This document shows positions 2,024 through 44,469 of a stretch of DNA of 47,560 nucleotides, one piece after another. A program made the position numbers and the translations under genes. Positions within the stretch are counted from its first letter, which is position 1, and each line of letters opens with the position of its first letter. The stretch is taken from the IMG/VR virus record IMGVR_UViG_2630968533_000001; one strand, 5' to 3'. This stretch comes from a virus (Duplodnaviria > Heunggongvirae > Uroviricota > Caudoviricetes). Under the pieces are notes generated by a model that was not told the DNA's origin, did not search any database, and saw only the letters and a program-made list of their open reading frames with translations.

Positions 2024-2236
2024 GTGGTTATCGGTTATGGTGGAATTATGATGCGTAGAAAAGCGAGTTTGCTGCAAGCTGTTGGGTCCATTATTTCTTT
2101 GTTTCCGGCAGTTGATCATTTTCGTCATATGGCGACACGTTCCAGTATGGGCTTAGCGCGTGATGCTGACGCTATTCGAAAGGATTTTCAGAAAGTCTCT
2201 GGCGTTGATAAGAGAGAAAAGAGTAAGGGGCCGTAG
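2024..2236 (+). CDS. Small hypothetical ORF (alternative start ATG 2048), low confidence
   Basis: ORF track; ends just before the hairpin at 2225-2242; preceded by a G-rich tract; no homology recognised. Confidence 0.2.
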   Translation: MVIGYGGIMMRRKASLLQAVGSIISLFPAVDHFRHMATRSSMGLARDADAIRKDFQKVSGVDKREKSKGP

Positions 2237-2242
2237 CCCCTT
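2225..2242. terminator. Hairpin AAGGGGC-CGTA-GCCCCTT between convergent genes
   Basis: Perfect 7-bp stem directly downstream of the antirepressor stop (minus) and the small + ORF. Confidence 0.4.
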
Positions 2243-2246
2243 GTAG

Positions 2247-3416
2247 TTATGGTCTGCTCTTCTGTGCCAGCTTATCAGCACATGTTTTTATCAGATCCTG
2301 TAGTGTCCTGGCTGGCAGGTTTGCATCCAGTACGCTGAGTATGCTGTTGTGATCTGCTTGGTCGACTACTTTGCCTGTCGGTGGTAGTAGCTTGAGCTGA
2401 GGATTCAGGTTTTCGTCAAAGCTGATAAGTGCTCTGGCGTTTCTGAGCAGATCAAGAAGTAAGGCTGATATCACATTTTCCTGAGTCATTGCTGACAGAT
2501 TTAGCGCCGCTTTGGTTTTCCCTGTTGCCTTGTCAAACTCCTTGATTAGTTCCTTCCTGTAGTTCGGTTCCGTTAATAGCCGATTATGCTCTGTTGCCGC
2601 GCGGATAATCGTTTTTTCCTGGTACAGTCGTTTAGCCAGATCACGCTCGTACTGTGTTTTTAACACGCTGCTGATAGCGTTAAAGGCTTCAATGTAGGCC
2701 AGCTTGATATCTTTCACGCCTGGACCGTCGATACTTTCCATGAGCAAGGTAAATCCGTCTTTTGTCATGCGATAGATTGTTATTTCGCGGTCGCTTCCTT
2801 CCAGCGGTCGTTGCTCTTTAAAGAAATGACGTGCCGCAGCTGTGCGAGGAATGCGTAACGCATCGATGGCCATAACGATGGAATTGTTTGTGGTGCTGAA
2901 TGCCTGGGCAACATCGGCTGAGGTTGTGAGTGGCTCGTTGTTGCACACCTTAATGTAAAACATCGGTTTGGCGTTGAGCGTATCGACAACCTCACGAGCA
3001 TTGTTTGGCGAGACGGTTACGGTCGCGGCCGTTTGTGTGTTCTGGCTGAAATAGCAGTCTTCCAGCCGTTCGAACACATCCCAAGCCTGATCGGTTTCAA
3101 GCATTTTGGCGTGACGTGCAGCCCCGCGTTCTGTCCAGAGAATGAGGGAGCGGGCTTTCGGGGAAATTTGTAACCCTCTTAAAGATGGTTGCACATTTTG
3201 TGAGTGACTTAAAGTCACTCGCAAAGTTTTTAACTCATCGCCAGCCACTTTGAAAAAATGCTTTCCTTCAATAAAGCGGTTTGCGTTACGTGAGTAATTT
3301 TTTTTGATGTTATCAACGTCTGTGCCGTATAGCTTTGCCAGTAGTTCAGTAGTGATAACGGGGATCTGGTTATGCAGGATAGGCTGTAGGGTGTTAACGG
3401 TCGGAAGCGTTTTCAT
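2247..3416 (-). CDS. Phage antirepressor (N-terminal ORF6N-like and Rha-like domains)
   Basis: ORF track; N-terminal motif ITTELLAKLYGTDVDNIKKNYSRNANRFIEGKHFFKV typical of ORF6N antirepressors; central PLTTSADVAQAF segment Rha-like; start overlaps the stop of the upstream small ORF (ATGA). Confidence 0.65.
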   Translation of the reverse strand: MKTLPTVNTLQPILHNQIPVITTELLAKLYGTDVDNIKKNYSRNANRFIEGKHFFKVAGDELKTLRVTLSHSQNVQPSLRGLQISPKARSLILWTERGAARHAKMLETDQAWDVFERLEDCYFSQNTQTAATVTVSPNNAREVVDTLNAKPMFYIKVCNNEPLTTSADVAQAFSTTNNSIVMAIDALRIPRTAAARHFFKEQRPLEGSDREITIYRMTKDGFTLLMESIDGPGVKDIKLAYIEAFNAISSVLKTQYERDLAKRLYQEKTIIRAATEHNRLLTEPNYRKELIKEFDKATGKTKAALNLSAMTQENVISALLLDLLRNARALISFDENLNPQLKLLPPTGKVVDQADHNSILSVLDANLPARTLQDLIKTCADKLAQKSRP

Positions 3417-3604
3417 TTTGCACCTCCCATAACTACTTTGGTTACGAGGGAGATTTTTGCGTCAGAAACAGCGTTATCGTTGCTGGCGATGCGCATAGCT
3501 TCGCGCTCGATGATTTCAGCCAGGCGGAATTTATCGGCGTATGAGGCTTTCTTGAGAAGGATCTTTACGAGGTTGACGTAATAGTCATGGGGTAGGTTTG
3601 TCAT
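3413..3604 (-). CDS. Small protein (63 aa) translationally coupled to the antirepressor (icd-like position)
   Basis: ORF track; 4-nt overlap with the antirepressor start; SD-like AAGGGA upstream on the minus strand. Confidence 0.45.
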   Translation of the reverse strand: MTNLPHDYYVNLVKILLKKASYADKFRLAEIIEREAMRIASNDNAVSDAKISLVTKVVMGGAK

Positions 3605-3769
3605 TGTGATGATTCCCTTAAAGGTTAAGGATACTCACCACCGTCAGGTTCCAATCATTGGGTGGTGAGACGTGCAGGGTTGGAACTACCGGACACAATG
3701 ACGAACCGGCGAGTCTTACGACTCCCCCGCACGCCCCACCATAATTTGGGTGTAGCAGTGCTTTACGCA

Positions 3770-3869
3770 TAAAAAAACCGCTAACGCGGTATGCGCCATT
3801 GTGTCTACGGGGTTCCAATCCCGACCGTAGATTTTGCTACGGCTCGGAAAGTGTCCACCAATGGCGCAT
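3770..3869 (-). ncRNA. Candidate structured small RNA / leader element (c4-like hypothesis)
   Basis: On the minus strand an 11-bp terminal stem (3791-3801 with 3859-3869) encloses an inner hairpin ctacgg/ccgtag, followed by hairpin accgc-gtta-gcggt and a U7 run (3770-3790); loop sequence has a near-complement at about 3680-3695 in the downstream leader. Confidence 0.25.
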
Positions 3870-4360
3870 TCATGTCAATACGGCGGGATTTTAACAGAGA
3901 CAACCACATAGCGTGGGTTTATTGGTAGGCAGAAACAAAAAAACCGCCCTATTGAGGACGGTTCTTTCGTGCTGATCGGATTCGCGGTCCTTTCAGCATA
4001 ACGTCGTTGTATAAACAACCACGCAAGCACAAGCAGCAAGTTAATTTTACCCAAAAGGTAATAATAGTCCACTATTATGCTTCAAAAAATTGTGGTTCTT
4101 GTTGTGCCTGCAAACTCACAGATTGTGGGTAGGTTACTGATTTTGTGAAAATAAACGAGTTTTTTCGTTTAATTTCTTTCCTATTACTAATCTTAAAATA
4201 ATCGTAAAATACCTGTGGACCTTCCCGCCGATTCGCACCCGGGCACCGACTTTAGGGGAGGATTCTCCGTTGCCGTACATGCAAGCACAAGCAGCCGTGC
4301 TTGCTCTCGCGTTGTTTTCGTCGGTGGGGATGCCGTGAAACGGCCTGTAAGGGCCATACA

Positions 4361-4483
4361 ATGAAAAAATACTGTATGTGTATTTTTATCGTTGTTACTG
4401 GGGCTTTGTTTACGCCACATGGGGAGGGTTGGAAGATTACTGATAACGCTCTGAATGTGACGATAAACATTAGCAGCAAGTAG
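4361..4483 (+). CDS. Small hydrophobic ORF (40 aa, MKKYCMCIFIVVTGALF...), speculative
   Basis: In-frame ATG within ORF 4301-4483; hydrophobic N-terminus; followed by a strong terminator; no SD seen. Confidence 0.2.
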   Translation: MKKYCMCIFIVVTGALFTPHGEGWKITDNALNVTINISSK

Positions 4484-4487
4484 CGAT

Positions 4488-4512
4488 TAGGCCCCTTCGG
4501 GGGCCTTTTTTA
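4488..4512 (+). terminator. Rho-independent terminator (AGGCCCC-TTCG-GGGGCCT then T-run)
   Basis: Perfect GC-rich hairpin followed by TTTTTTAT. Confidence 0.55.
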
Positions 4513-6052: not shown

Positions 6053-6071
6053 AAACCACAAAATGTGGTTT
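6053..6071. promoter_or_regulatory. Operator-like palindrome AACCACA-N3-TGTGGTT
   Basis: Perfect inverted repeat read directly; same half-site family as the palindromes in the cI/cro intergenic region. Confidence 0.35.
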
Positions 6072-6111: not shown

Positions 6112-6768
6112 TCATAACCAGTTGACAACACTAACTACGCGGCCAAGAACTTTATAACGCTTAAATTCCTCGTTATTCAGATGCTTAGTGTTCATTTCAG
6201 CATCCCTTTCGGTTGACAGCATAACAGCATTGTCACCCGGTATGACTCTACAGTGCCTCAAAACAACCAGGCCATTTCTGTCTTCAAGGGCATAGATCCC
6301 CTCATGAATCTCTGTATCGTCTGTATTAATCAGGACTTGGGAGCCAGGGGATATTGTTGGTGACATTAACTCATCGTTGCTCTGGAGAACTGACAGAGAC
6401 GATGGGTTGATGTTCTTGCTTCGTAGAATCTCCTGTTCTATCGCCAGCACTGGCTTTTCTCCGGCGTGCGATGCTATGTCATTTTTTATAGCTACAAGCC
6501 CAGGAATAACAGGAGCGTTAGTATTCTGGGGTGGGAACGGGTTATCTGTTAAGCACGCGATATAAGGCGCTGATGCTTTCAGGGCGTGCGCGATTTTCTT
6601 GATGGCAGGTATAGATGGTTGTCTTAATCCGGCCTCATAGTTCTGCAAGGTGCTTAAGCCTATTCCAGTGACTTGCTGGAGATCTCCGGCAGTCATGCCG
6701 GATTGTTTCCGTAGAGTCTGAATGCGCAGACCTATTTCTTTCTTGATGTTCTCGTCGTTGCTTTTCAT
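6112..6768 (-). CDS. cI-like repressor (N-terminal HTH plus C-terminal S24/LexA-like peptidase domain)
   Basis: ORF track; N-terminal HTH IGLRIQTLRKQSGMTAGDLQQVTGIGLSTLQNYEAG; C-terminal autocleavage-type domain; divergent from the cro-like gene. Confidence 0.8.
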   Translation of the reverse strand: MKSNDENIKKEIGLRIQTLRKQSGMTAGDLQQVTGIGLSTLQNYEAGLRQPSIPAIKKIAHALKASAPYIACLTDNPFPPQNTNAPVIPGLVAIKNDIASHAGEKPVLAIEQEILRSKNINPSSLSVLQSNDELMSPTISPGSQVLINTDDTEIHEGIYALEDRNGLVVLRHCRVIPGDNAVMLSTERDAEMNTKHLNNEEFKRYKVLGRVVSVVNWL

Positions 6769-6941
6769 GTCTCATCAATCGTGAATGGTGGGTTATTTAT
6801 ACATTACCACATTTAGTGGTTTTCACATGGTAAGACGAGAGGTGGACCACAAATAGAAGGTTATTTTTTGTTTCGCCCATTGAAAAACTCACGATATGTG
6901 GTTTTAATACCACATATCGTGGTTTAACTGGAGTTCGTTAA
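6769..6941. promoter_or_regulatory. Divergent repressor/cro promoter-operator region
   Basis: 12-bp perfect inverted repeat CACGATATGTGG/CCACATATCGTG at 6890-6921 and ACCAC-N5-GTGGT at 6806-6820 between the divergent genes. Confidence 0.5.
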
Positions 6942-15331: not shown

Positions 15332-15407
15332 GGCCCCTTAGCTCAGTGGTTAGAGCAGGCGACTCATAATCGCACGGTCATCGGTTCAAATCCGGTAGGG
15401 GCCACCA
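15332..15407 (+). tRNA. tRNA with CAT anticodon (tRNA-Met or lysidine-type tRNA-Ile2-like)
   Basis: Cloverleaf read by hand: acceptor GGCCCCT/AGGGGCC, D-arm GCTC/GAGC, anticodon loop CTCATAA (CAT at 15365-15367), T-arm ATCGG-TTCAAAT-CCGGT, encoded CCA; G1-C72 paired so not an initiator; 5' half resembles E. coli ileX as recalled. Confidence 0.85.
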
Positions 15408-35878: not shown

Positions 35879-36869
35879 AACGCTTTTTGATGTTATATAT
35901 CAGAATGTAAATATTACCGCTCATATGTCACCTGATGTTTTGTCAATGTCTTATACAGATAATGAAGATGGTCAGGTCGATGATATTTCTATTATATTAA
36001 AAAATGATGATGGGAAATGGTCTGGAGACTGGACACCTAAAAAGGGTGATTTTATTGATTTGAGCTTTAAGCCTATAAATCAAATCGTCCTTGAGTGCGG
36101 GAAATTCCAGGTAGATGGCATAACTTGCTCTGGACCACCTTCTGTGGTTGAGGTAACTGCTGTTTCTGTTCCTGTTTCATCAGGCATTAGACGTGATTTA
36201 AAAAGTAATGCATGGGAAAAAACAACTCTTAAAGATATAGCAACTTCTATAGCTAAATTAGCTAACCTTGAACTGTTGTTTCTTATTGATGGTGATAGTA
36301 ATCCATATTATGCGCGTGAAGATCAAATGGAGGAAAGCGATTTAAAATTTCTCCATCGACTTTGCCAGGATGAAGGGTTGTCGTTAAAGGTCACTGATAG
36401 CCAATTAATAATATTTGCTCAAGAGATGTTTGAGCAAAAAGATCCTATCGCTACGCTTACGTTAGGTATTGATGAGATAATCAGATATAGCTTTAGCACA
36501 CAATCTACAGATTTGTATAAAAGTTGCACGTGCAAATATCGCGTACCTAAAAAAAGAAAGTCGCTTTCGTATACTTGGGTAGATCCATCCGTAGAAGAAG
36601 GGTCGAATCTTAAGATAAGAAAACTGGTAGCTAATTTAGATGAAGCAAAACGTAAGGCAAAGGCTGCTTTGCGGCTTAAAAATAGATATCAAAATACCGG
36701 ATCTTTAGTATTGGTTGGAGACACCAGATTGGTAGCTGGTGTAACTATAAATCTGGAGGGATTCGGTTCATTTTCTGGAAAATATCTTATATCGAAAGCT
36801 GTGCATTCAATTGGGACTAGTGGTTATACCACCTCGATTGATGTCCGAAGAGTAATTAATGGGTATTAA
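35868..36869 (+). CDS. Tail/baseplate hub protein (P2 gpD-like)
   Basis: ORF track; position after tape measure and X. Confidence 0.55.
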   Translation: MLRKTLFDVIYQNVNITAHMSPDVLSMSYTDNEDGQVDDISIILKNDDGKWSGDWTPKKGDFIDLSFKPINQIVLECGKFQVDGITCSGPPSVVEVTAVSVPVSSGIRRDLKSNAWEKTTLKDIATSIAKLANLELLFLIDGDSNPYYAREDQMEESDLKFLHRLCQDEGLSLKVTDSQLIIFAQEMFEQKDPIATLTLGIDEIIRYSFSTQSTDLYKSCTCKYRVPKKRKSLSYTWVDPSVEEGSNLKIRKLVANLDEAKRKAKAALRLKNRYQNTGSLVLVGDTRLVAGVTINLEGFGSFSGKYLISKAVHSIGTSGYTTSIDVRRVINGY

Positions 36870-43989: not shown

Positions 43990-44469
43990 AAGATAATCAT
44001 GTGACCAATTATTGTAATAATTTTAATGGTATGTTTCTACTGGCTATCCAGCGTGTCTGATACCCAGTAACAAATCGTTAACACAGGTGCAATCAAATGG
44101 TGAGTGTTAAGACTGGCCACTTATTACCAGGTATGAGGGTATGAGTGGCCAGCATTAAATCAGAACAGCCCTTTAACTGAACTGGCCGCGCTGTTAAGGG
44201 ATGATGTCACCTTATCTTTGAAGCCGGACAGCATATTGCTGAACGATGAGTTTACCGCAGGTTTCTGGCTGGGAATCATTGACTGGAGTTAGGCCAGTAG
44301 TATGATGCTCGCAAAACGAGATCCAATTTAGATCCTTTTACTGGTGGATTATCGTTCGATCAGTGAGAGACTTCGTGCATGACCGAAAGTGTTGTGGTAG
44401 AGTTCTCTTAAAACCACGTAACGTGGTTATGATTGTGGGTGTCTGGTTGGAAAGTGACCAGATATGGAA

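Follow-up and report, generated by a model that had tools for sequence, protein, structure and literature searches.

The window analysed here, a whole stretch of 47,560 nucleotides, is an E. coli phage-plasmid of about 47.5 kb. Besides a gene for a cI-like repressor of 218 aa at 6112-6768 (HTH_3 and a weak S24 match), it carries on the minus strand an operon for an antirepressor-like protein headed by a structured leader. Public records of this phage-plasmid family annotate the locus only with 'hypothetical protein' or 'Rha family regulator'. In the direction of transcription, leader and operon contain the following features:

3903-3917, no strand assigned: palindromic operator-like site, CCCACGCTATGTGGT on the minus strand, at the left boundary of the conserved module
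3888-3896, minus: candidate extended -10 promoter TGTTAAAAT, predicted start about 3881, as read from the sequence
3850-3878, minus: proximal promoter, TTGACA (3878-3873), 17-nt spacer, GACACT (3855-3850), predicted start G3843, by alignment
3859-3869, minus: 5' arm of an 11-bp repeat inside the promoter spacer, ATGCGCCATTG, pairing with CAATGGCGCAT at 3801-3791
3771-3843, minus: IsrK-type short RNA, a c4-a1b1 element with terminator (Rfam RF01394, RF03163)
3812-3818, minus: a1 box UUGGAAC in the loop of hairpin 2, exact complement of a'
3797-3805, minus: b1 box GACACAAUG, 9-nt complement of the b' loop
3771-3790, minus: intrinsic terminator ACCGC-GUUA-GCGGU plus U7, from sequence and fold
3661-3740, minus: C4 antisense RNA, ends by alignment to annotated P1 c4 (Rfam match 3746-3658)
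3692-3702, minus: b', the loop of C4 hairpin 3, GUCAUUGUGUC, complementary to b1 and b2
3680-3686, minus: a', the unpaired C4 segment GUUCCAA, complement of a1 and a2
3648-3654, minus: a2 box UUGGAAC, 7 nt past the C4 3' end, complement of a'
3606-3641, minus: hairpin enclosing the Shine-Dalgarno sequence of ORF63 (AAGGGA, 3619-3614), a predicted fold
3600-3608, minus: b2 box CACAAUGAC over the ORF63 AUG (3604-3602), 9-nt perfect complement of b'
3413-3604, minus: ORF63 (63 codons), leader ORF, placed as icd is in P1 (PHROG 7886, E = 2e-47)
2247-3416, minus: 389-aa antirepressor-like protein with ORF6N and Rha domains (Pfam and PHROG)
2225-2242, minus: terminator-like hairpin closing the operon, from a sequence scan

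The 389-aa protein matches Pfam PF10543 (7.8e-21) and PF09669 (4.2e-12) as well as PHROG anti-repressor families. Its gene has a Shine-Dalgarno sequence of its own, GGGAGGUG, at 3428-3421, and its start overlaps the stop of ORF63 (ATGA, 3416-3413). The translationally coupled 63-codon ORF that the original prediction had placed before the antirepressor is therefore present. The record of Yersinia phage vB_YpM_39, on which a literature search found no paper, lists ORF63 as a CDS. Against P1 Icd, ORF63 gave no BLASTP alignment, and it had no Icd match in Pfam or NCBIfam, where NF033153 matches P1 Icd (52.6 bits) and not ORF63. Against P1 Ant1 the 389-aa protein gave BLASTP E values above 7 only; the KilAC ANT domain PF03374, which P1 Ant1 matches at 1.2e-30, is not found in it beside PF10543 and PF09669. 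The label 'icd/ant-like' consequently holds by position and fails by homology, since ORF63 is no Icd homologue and the domains of the 389-aa protein are ORF6N and Rha in place of KilAC. The protein-level roles of both products are assigned here from position and family annotation.

Two RNA families score above their Rfam gathering thresholds, in tandem on the operon strand. C4 (RF01695) reaches 77.8 bits against a gathering score of 45, with a full-length match (model positions 1-87; minus strand, 3746-3658), and isrK (RF01394) 67.7 bits against 50 (model match 1-77; minus strand, 3843-3771). The c4-a1b1 model (RF03163) gives 38.8 bits at 3856-3804, which is under its gathering score of 46.7; its two hairpins and a1 loop can still be recognised here, within the stretch matched by isrK. 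The C4 segment 3740-3661 has a minimum free energy (MFE) of -46.1 kcal/mol (z = -6.2), and its MFE structure is the family fold, with a long basal stem round the tetraloop hairpin (GUAA, a GNRA loop), a variable-loop hairpin bearing b', and a single-stranded a'. Compensatory changes were seen in 7 of 23 C4 pairs among 27 relatives. In the IsrK-type RNA, hairpin 1 is followed by hairpin 2, whose loop holds a1, and then by b1 and the intrinsic terminator; this RNA aligns with the annotated a1/b1 sites of P1. The terminator stands directly after b1 in every related locus inspected and is bracketed by a conserved and co-varying helix (GGCGCAU 3797-3791 with AUGCGU 3770-3765; P1 counterpart CGGACA/UGUCCG). 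In 13 of 14 diverse loci, and in Gifsy-1 itself, C4 is preceded by an isrK match at a distance of about 25 nt.

All the sequence elements named in the original prediction could be located as described: a structured leader of about 270 nt (about 274 nt counted from the -35 hexamer and 239 nt from the predicted start), an 11-bp terminal stem (a perfect inverted repeat, 3869-3859/3801-3791), a minus-strand hairpin with a U7 run (ACCGC-GUUA-GCGGU at 3790-3777, then U7 at 3777-3771), a loop sequence recurring at about 3647 (GATTGGAAC at 3820-3812 and 3656-3648), and a near-complement of it at about 3683 (GTTCCAA, 3686-3680). Their roles turned out to be inverted. The element of about 80 nt with its U7 hairpin had been taken for the c4-equivalent small RNA, but it is this element that matches isrK and c4-a1b1 and holds target boxes; the real C4 is the segment containing the near-complement, which is its a' box, and the copy at about 3647 is the target a2. 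Folding and Rfam searches of the minus strand, which had been proposed as a check, recovered a structured leader and a C4 RNA, the latter not in the element expected. The parallel to P1 immI was right in the class of module, a c4 type, and wrong in that a target or decoy RNA was mistaken for the repressor RNA.

Both antisense boxes of C4 have perfect complements on either side of it, a' with 7/7 positions at a1 and a2 and b' over 9 nt at b1 and b2, and all four boxes occurred together in 0 of 20,000 flank shuffles. A G-U-tolerant search also returned an alternative b2, ACGGTGGTGAGT, with 6 G-U pairs, which we regard as a spurious product of that search; the perfect 9-mer was preferred. RNAduplex, run on a candidate TimR-like sRNA and ryfA, was too permissive to interpret, and an exact-complement search was used instead. 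The hairpin at 3641-3606 round the ribosome-binding site is not significant on its own (z only -0.8). The pair b1 (3805-3797) and b2 (3608-3600) had been missed earlier, and with it the decisive target, b2 on the ORF63 AUG.

Co-variation of the boxes was followed through 86 non-redundant related loci with 13 a' types, 33 b' types and 40 combinations. The a' box is matched exactly by a1 in 85/86 loci and by a2 in 86/86, and b2 sits on the Shine-Dalgarno sequence or the AUG of the first ORF in all 86. The longest downstream complementarity is at least 8 nt in 91% of cognate pairs versus 4% of non-cognate pairs. Five matched alleles occur in the window's own family, whose members have the promoter and ORF63 in common; here a', a1 and a2 change together and/or b', b1 and b2 change together. 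The b' allele of vB_YpM_39 is CCAUGGUGA.

In alignment, the proximal promoter corresponds to P1c4/P51b, an annotated promoter of P1, and it has the geometry of Gifsy-1 PisrK (TTGACA-17-CTATAT); the predicted start, 3843, is also where position 1 of the Rfam isrK model lies. Only 3/6 consensus positions are matched by its -10 hexamer GACACT, and a two-hexamer promoter scan reported neither of the two leader promoters. The CTGTTAAAATCCC portion of the candidate extended -10 promoter is conserved in the family. Another upstream candidate, TTGTCT-17-TATTGA, was rejected; its -35 is not conserved in two relatives (L077 and L130) and its -10 lacks the final T. The operator-like palindrome would, as judged from its position, overlap the -35/spacer region of the candidate extended -10 promoter. 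Its motif ACCAC-N5-GTGG, first spotted by eye and then confirmed statistically, has 12 matches in the window versus 0.21 expected; three sites are found between the cI-like and cro-like genes (6806-6923), and the leader site is kept in 10/10 family members examined, even beside unrelated upstream DNA. Apart from an A-run, the ant promoter has no long k-mer in common with the cI-cro intergenic region, and no LexA box (CTG-N10-CAG type) was found near the promoter.

The 11-bp repeat is not a chance product: among 500 dinucleotide shuffles of 3900-3771 the mean was 6.2 bp, and 11 bp was never reached. Its 3' arm (3801-3791) is overlapped by b1. The 5' arm lies between the predicted -35 and -10 hexamers and would be RNA only in transcripts begun further upstream. 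Similar spacer arms that pair just 3' of the a1 hairpin recur, with compensatory changes, in lambdoid families as well as in P1 and Gifsy-1; in Gifsy-1 the arm precedes the start of the Rfam isrK model (taken as the IsrK +1). An occasional 'third stem' with covariation has been mentioned by Weinberg 2010. A functional third stem in transcripts entering from upstream, so that promoter choice, set by the primary repressor, decides the anti-C4 decoy role of the leader, is a rather improbable reading. Such transcripts would come from the candidate operator-controlled extended -10 promoter (3896-3888) or from read-through, and the stem would mask b1 and the terminator-bracketing helix in them.

We conclude, with a probability of about 0.8, that the module is an RNA switch of the P1 immI and Gifsy-1 isrK type which governs the antirepressor operon. 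The element is an ordinary copy of the P1-type 'second immunity' switch, unannotated until now, and no new kind of system. In a switch of this type, a small C4 RNA is cut from the leader of the antirepressor operon and blocks translation of that same operon. A c4-type antisense module here resides on a replicon that has a cI-like repressor as well, in line with the second layer of immunity foreseen in the original prediction.

The promoter at 3878-3850 (minus strand) would produce leader RNA from about 3843, and most transcripts would end at the terminator 3790-3771, giving an IsrK-like RNA of about 73 nt that displays a1 and b1. C4 (3740-3661) would be carried by read-through transcripts and excised from them, its 5' end presumably by RNase P as in P1. 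Acting in trans, it would pair through a' with a2 (3654-3648) and through the b' loop with b2 (3608-3600) on the ORF63 start codon. Covering of the start codon would preclude translation of ORF63 and hence of the ATGA-coupled antirepressor, which itself would be expected to inactivate the cI-like repressor at 6112-6768. In P1, polarity follows translational repression. The a1/b1 RNA upstream, having the same two boxes, may serve as a competitor for C4; competition of a1/b1 with a2/b2 for c4 has already been proposed for P1 (PMC2864571 supplement). For Gifsy-1 it has been reported that the short IsrK RNA binds Hfq and switches on orf45-anrP in trans, that overexpressed IsrK raised an anrP translational fusion more than 100-fold, and that IsrK is followed downstream by STnc1160, a processed RNA that is stable (PMC4825925).

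The published Gifsy-1 model, backed by compensatory mutants (PMC4825925), offers another reading, in which the C4-like segment works only in cis within an inactive read-through fold, the short terminated RNA opens this fold in trans, and no free C4 repressor RNA takes part. The full leader (3843-3605, 239 nt) is indeed highly structured, with an MFE of -100.5 kcal/mol (z = -6.0; 0/200 shuffles fold as well), and in its MFE structure a1/b1 are paired in cis with a'/b', so that some of the control may be exerted within one molecule and not through free C4. As the whole explanation we consider riboregulation by the short RNA improbable. It would give a2/b2 no reason to track a'/b', and they do so in 86/86 loci and in the five family alleles. 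Moreover, STnc1160 of Gifsy-1 lies where Rfam finds C4 (69 bits), and c4 of P1 is annotated as a discrete 77-nt RNA.

Just as improbable, in our estimation, is a control of the P4 type, in which C4 on nascent a1/b1 and a2/b2 would mainly enforce termination, at 3790-3771 and/or by Rho within ORF63, rather than block ribosome binding. The constant place of the terminator directly behind b1 and the conserved, co-varying helix bracketing it speak for this reading, as does the IsrK paper (PMC4825925), where P4 CI RNA with seqA/seqC is described as a structural homologue that works by termination. The position of b2 on the start codon or the Shine-Dalgarno sequence in all loci, however, points to translational control. 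Termination and translational mechanisms are not mutually exclusive.

It is very hard to maintain that the element with the 11-bp stem and the U7 hairpin (3869-3771) is a repressor small RNA acting in trans on the copies at about 3683 and 3647, even though it ends in a genuine intrinsic terminator, its inverted repeat is non-random, and a short stable RNA of the IsrK type exists in Salmonella. The element matches target boxes (isrK and c4-a1b1) and not C4, aligning with a1/b1 of P1; the copy at 3656-3648 is identical and not complementary to it, so its RNA could not pair there; its 5' stem arm lies in a promoter spacer; and the homologue studied experimentally, IsrK, activates and does not repress. 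Equally hard to maintain is an inactive remnant that has kept c4-module homology in the window plasmid and lost the function: the closest plasmid, ECOR39 RCS82_pI, does have ORF63 frameshifted by a 1-nt deletion (which may reflect module decay in some copies or a sequencing error) and a shorter annotated antirepressor CDS, but both ORFs of the window are intact, its four boxes are perfect, and family members keep matched allele sets.

The RNA switch read here as the P1 immI type has the same one-strand order as immI of P1/P7 (c4 - icd - ant1/ant2), namely promoter, a1, b1, terminator-like hairpin, c4, a2, b2, small ORF and antirepressor. The ATGA overlap of small ORF and antirepressor is found in both (P1 L003 2888-2891; window 3416-3413). 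The C4 RNAs are homologous, with an identical 5' stem, the AAUUAU|GG 5' context and a 3' ACC tail in common, and the proximal promoter is P51b-like; immediately upstream there is a candidate repressor-type operator in the window and Op51 in P1. The two differ in a'/b' specificity and in the site of b2, which in the window is on the AUG, 37 nt after a2, and in P1 on the Shine-Dalgarno sequence, 22 nt after a2. ORF63 is outside the Icd family, the antirepressor is of the ORF6N and Rha type whereas that of P1 has the KilAC ANT domain, and the primary repressor is cI-like, not P1 C1.

The Gifsy-1 locus isrK-orf45 (STnc1160)-anrP resembles the window in having isrK (79.3 bits), C4 about 25 nt later (69 bits), a2/b2, an antirepressor-like gene and the same promoter geometry, and the window RNA 3843-3771 is a homologue of IsrK. 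Unlike ORF63, the coupled leader ORF orf45 has its AUG at the 5' edge of C4 and extends across C4, a2 and b2; the corresponding frame of the window meets a stop after 8 codons, and ORF63 is a separate ORF downstream of b2. The published Gifsy-1 model assigns no C4-repressor role to the segment (PMC4825925). By its description, P4 CI RNA is likewise a small RNA, processed from an untranslated leader, that pairs with sites up- and downstream of itself, and P4 seqA was cited by the IsrK authors as a structural homologue of IsrK (PMC4825925). P4 CI RNA, however, causes premature termination of replication genes, whereas the window RNA would mask the start codon of the antirepressor operon.

With this analysis, the annotation of the phage-plasmid family gains a C4 RNA and an IsrK-type RNA, four target boxes and a candidate operator. 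It also joins two literatures, as Gifsy-1 isrK-orf45-anrP and P1 immI have the same RNA architecture, which allows the 'activation' by IsrK to be understood as titration of a C4 repressor. Within this family of E. coli/Yersinia phage-plasmids, one conserved backbone is combined with at least five matched C4 specificity alleles. Such matched alleles amount to heteroimmunity of the P1/P7 type and predict which family members can exclude each other.

A search of the minus strand against Rfam at curated thresholds, as suggested in the original prediction, returned isrK and C4 in tandem, and a second pass with relaxed thresholds added c4-a1b1. The parts of the module are as follows (a' and b', pairing segments of C4 RNA; a1/b1 and a2/b2, upstream and downstream target boxes; ORF63, the 63-codon leader ORF):

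3917-3903, minus: operator-like palindrome, CCCACGCTATGTGGT
3896-3888, minus: candidate extended -10 promoter, TGTTAAAAT
3878-3850, minus: predicted proximal promoter, TTGACA-17-GACACT
3856-3804: c4-a1b1, relaxed thresholds, 38.8 bits (below gathering, 46.7)
3843-3771, minus: isrK, 67.7 bits (gathering 50)
3818-3812, minus: a1, in the loop of the second IsrK hairpin
3805-3797, minus: b1, 9-nt complement of b'
3746-3658, minus: C4 antisense RNA, 77.8 bits (gathering 45)
3702-3692, minus: b', GUCAUUGUGUC, loop of C4 hairpin 3
3686-3680, minus: a', GUUCCAA, single-stranded within C4
3654-3648, minus: a2, starting 7 nt past the C4 3' end
3608-3600, minus: b2, CACAAUGAC, spanning the ORF63 AUG (3604-3602)
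3604-3413, minus: ORF63
3416-2247, minus: 389-aa ORF with ORF6N and Rha domains, matching PHROG anti-repressor families

The original prediction had proposed a c4/icd/ant-like module with an ~80-nt element and its U7 hairpin as the repressor RNA. The class is borne out by the C4 match and by the box set a1-b1-c4-a2-b2, which the P1 record annotates together with icd and ant1; the assignment of parts is not. Given the isrK and C4 matches, the element is by homology IsrK/a1b1 and not C4, and the real C4 lies downstream of the IsrK terminator, where it holds the near-complement of the loop that the prediction described. Alignment with the annotated 77-nt P1 c4 places the predicted ends of mature C4 at 3740-3661; this segment folds into the C4 family structure (-46.1 kcal/mol, z = -6.2), with compensatory changes at 7 of 23 pairs in 27 relatives. 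The structured leader was recovered (-100.5 kcal/mol, z = -6.0 for 3843-3605), its minimum free energy fold pairing a1/b1 with a'/b' in cis, as were the hairpin (3790-3777, then U7) and the recurring loop sequence, GATTGGAAC at 3820-3812 and again at 3656-3648, with its complement GTTCCAA at 3686-3680. All four complements together were found in 0/20,000 flank shuffles; in P1, likewise, the a1/b1/a2/b2 sites have their complements in the hairpin loop (b') of c4 and in its 3' single strand (a').

An IMG/VR scan for the conserved C4 5' stem gave 120 loci which, with P1 and close relatives, yielded 86 non-redundant modules with 13 a' heptamers, 33 b' loops and 40 combinations. Upstream, 85 of the 86 have an exact reverse complement of a', and downstream all of them do; complements of b' at b1 and b2 measure 7-10 nt, and b2 invariably sits on either the Shine-Dalgarno sequence or the start codon of the first ORF downstream. 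Downstream complementarity of at least 8 nt was seen in 91% of cognate C4/flank pairs versus 4% of non-cognate pairs. Within the window's own family, whose members share the promoter and ORF63, there are five alleles, in which either a', a1 and a2 (GTTCCAA, ACGCCAA, AGGCTAA) or b', b1 and b2 (GTCATTGTG, CCATGGTGA, TCATGATGA) were switched jointly, as selection on C4-target pairing would predict; these matched alleles mirror P1/P7 heteroimmunity.

In 13 of 14 diverse loci isrK lies ~25 nt upstream of C4. Salmonella Gifsy-1 carries isrK (79.3 bits), then C4 (69 bits), a2 (UUGGCGU) and b2 on the anrP Shine-Dalgarno. There, processing yields a stable RNA, STnc1160, that maps downstream of IsrK, short IsrK RNA raises an anrP translational fusion >100-fold in trans, and pairing of IsrK with the downstream segment was shown by compensatory mutants (PMC4825925). 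The STnc1160 segment is where Rfam places C4, and in C4 terms IsrK can be read as titrating a'/b'. At 34214-34131 (minus) in Gifsy-1, the published orf45 starts at an AUG on the C4 5' edge and reads through C4, a2 and b2, whereas the matching frame in the window ends after 8 codons.

We favour a P1-type mechanism (probability about 0.82), in which C4 would cover the ORF63 start, the coupled antirepressor would consequently not be produced, and the terminated a1/b1 RNA would compete for C4, a role proposed earlier for a1/b1 in P1 (PMC2864571 supplement). An IsrK-type model in which the C4-like segment works purely in cis, with no separate C4 repressor, is improbable, as it leaves the a2/b2 co-variation unexplained. 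A P4-like termination component may contribute, though as the main mode of control it is improbable; a conserved helix bracketing the IsrK terminator hints at it: GGCGCAU (3797-3791) pairs with AUGCGU (3770-3765) just past the U-run, in read-through RNA only, and the helix is kept with different sequences elsewhere (CGGACA/UGUCCG in P1-type loci). That the upstream element is itself the repressor RNA is hardly credible, being contradicted by its isrK/a1b1 homology and by the 3656-3648 copy, which is identical to it and not complementary. In the window, the 3' strand of the C4 basal stem, CUCACCACC (3669-3661), has an alternative downstream partner, GGUGGUGAG (3642-3634), conserved in most lambdoid-type loci, and this pairing would set a2 in a hairpin loop; a second option for GGUGGUGA is UCAUCAC beside b2, enclosing the ORF63 Shine-Dalgarno.

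The proximal promoter aligns with the annotated P51b of P1, and its geometry is that of Gifsy-1 PisrK; the isrK model has its position 1 at 3843. The closing stem ascribed to the element corresponds to an 11-bp inverted repeat without mismatches (ATGCGCCATTG 3869-3859 / CAATGGCGCAT 3801-3791; 0/500 shuffles), whose 5' arm lies inside the proximal promoter spacer and is therefore missing from RNA started at 3843. Where b1 alleles differ among family members, the repeat is shortened to 9 bp and the 5' arm is unchanged, so that the stem does not co-vary within the window's family. Several other, unrelated families (P1, lambdoid types) also have a spacer arm that can pair with the 3' side of the a1 hairpin, and the differences are compensatory (AATTCCGGG/CCCGGAATT versus AATTTCGGG/CCCGAAATT, and others); 26 of 65 distinct cases show a complement of 8 nt or longer, compared with 0.8% in controls. 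An occasional third stem of this sort was noted by Weinberg et al. (PMC2864571 supplement). Arm and partner lie at ~2409-2416 / 2460-2467 in P1 and at ~34345-34336 / 34283-34276 in Gifsy-1. If IsrK +1 is taken from where the Rfam model starts, the Gifsy-1 arm lies upstream of it, and the stem could then arise only in transcripts entering from upstream.

The palindrome at 3917-3903 bounds the conserved module on the left in every relative examined. It would overlap the -35/spacer of the candidate extended -10 promoter, and the two may correspond to the C1-controlled P51a, which precedes P51b in P1 as they precede the proximal promoter. The motif ACCAC-N5-GTGG has 12 matches in the window versus 0.21 expected; sites of ACCAC-N5-GTGG(T) include 3903-3917, 6055-6069, 6806-6820, 6889-6902, 6909-6923, 36134-36148 and 44413-44427. 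Three sit in the interval between the cI-like gene and the cro-like gene, and single copies upstream of the antirepressor leader and ~40 bp upstream of a 325-aa ORF at 44464, probably repA. This distribution suggests that lysis-lysogeny, the antirepressor operon and perhaps also replication are under one repressor.

Over 2200-4100 the window shares 99.6% identity with the E. coli ECOR39 plasmid RCS82_pI (NZ_LT985302; 47.8 kb, circular) and 90-97% with >50 further Escherichia plasmids of ~47-50 kb as well as with Yersinia phages vB_YpM_39/41/44. Because these records hold RepA, ParA, a cI-like HTH protein and HigB-type toxins beside phage genes, the window is, judged by gene content, a phage-plasmid. 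Records of the relatives checked carry no RNA annotation at the locus (PLSDB gene tables leave out RNA genes in any case), which is annotated as 'Rha family transcriptional regulator' or 'ORF6N domain-containing protein' plus hypothetical proteins. In RCS82_pI, CCC replaces the CCCC of the window (~3590) around codons 5-6 of ORF63, with a frameshift after 12 codons, and the annotated Rha-family CDS has only 717 nt, which may reflect decay or a homopolymer sequencing error. The window also carries a tRNA gene (15332-15404, plus; 67 bits in Rfam) whose anticodon loop, CUCAUAA, gives the anticodon CAU, of Met or Ile2 type.

Next to the module lies a ryfA RNA (4215-4511, plus; 141.8 bits) encoding a hydrophobic peptide of 40 aa (4361-4483, MKKYCMCIFIVVTGALF...) that resembles a TimP-type type I toxin. 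Divergent to it is a candidate sRNA of ~100 nt (~4037-3937, minus), with a promoter-like site (4071-4044) in front and a terminator (~3957-3937) at its end. Over 15 nt it is perfectly complementary to ryfA (4023-4037 against 4281-4295), and it is probably the antitoxin RNA.

The proposed coupling of ORF63 to the antirepressor-like ORF agrees with their ATGA overlap. A likeness of ORF63 to icd did not hold: it is a member of PHROG 7886 (unknown function), is not similar to P1 Icd, and is not matched by the NCBIfam Icd model, which matches P1 Icd. The 389-aa protein gave no alignment with P1 Ant1, which has a KilAC ANT domain where the former has ORF6N and Rha, and at other loci C4 directly precedes Rha- or Bro-type genes without a leader ORF. 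The RNA switch is thus homologous to that of P1, and the cargo proteins are not. The module is an unannotated new member of the C4/IsrK antirepressor-control family, a class known already.
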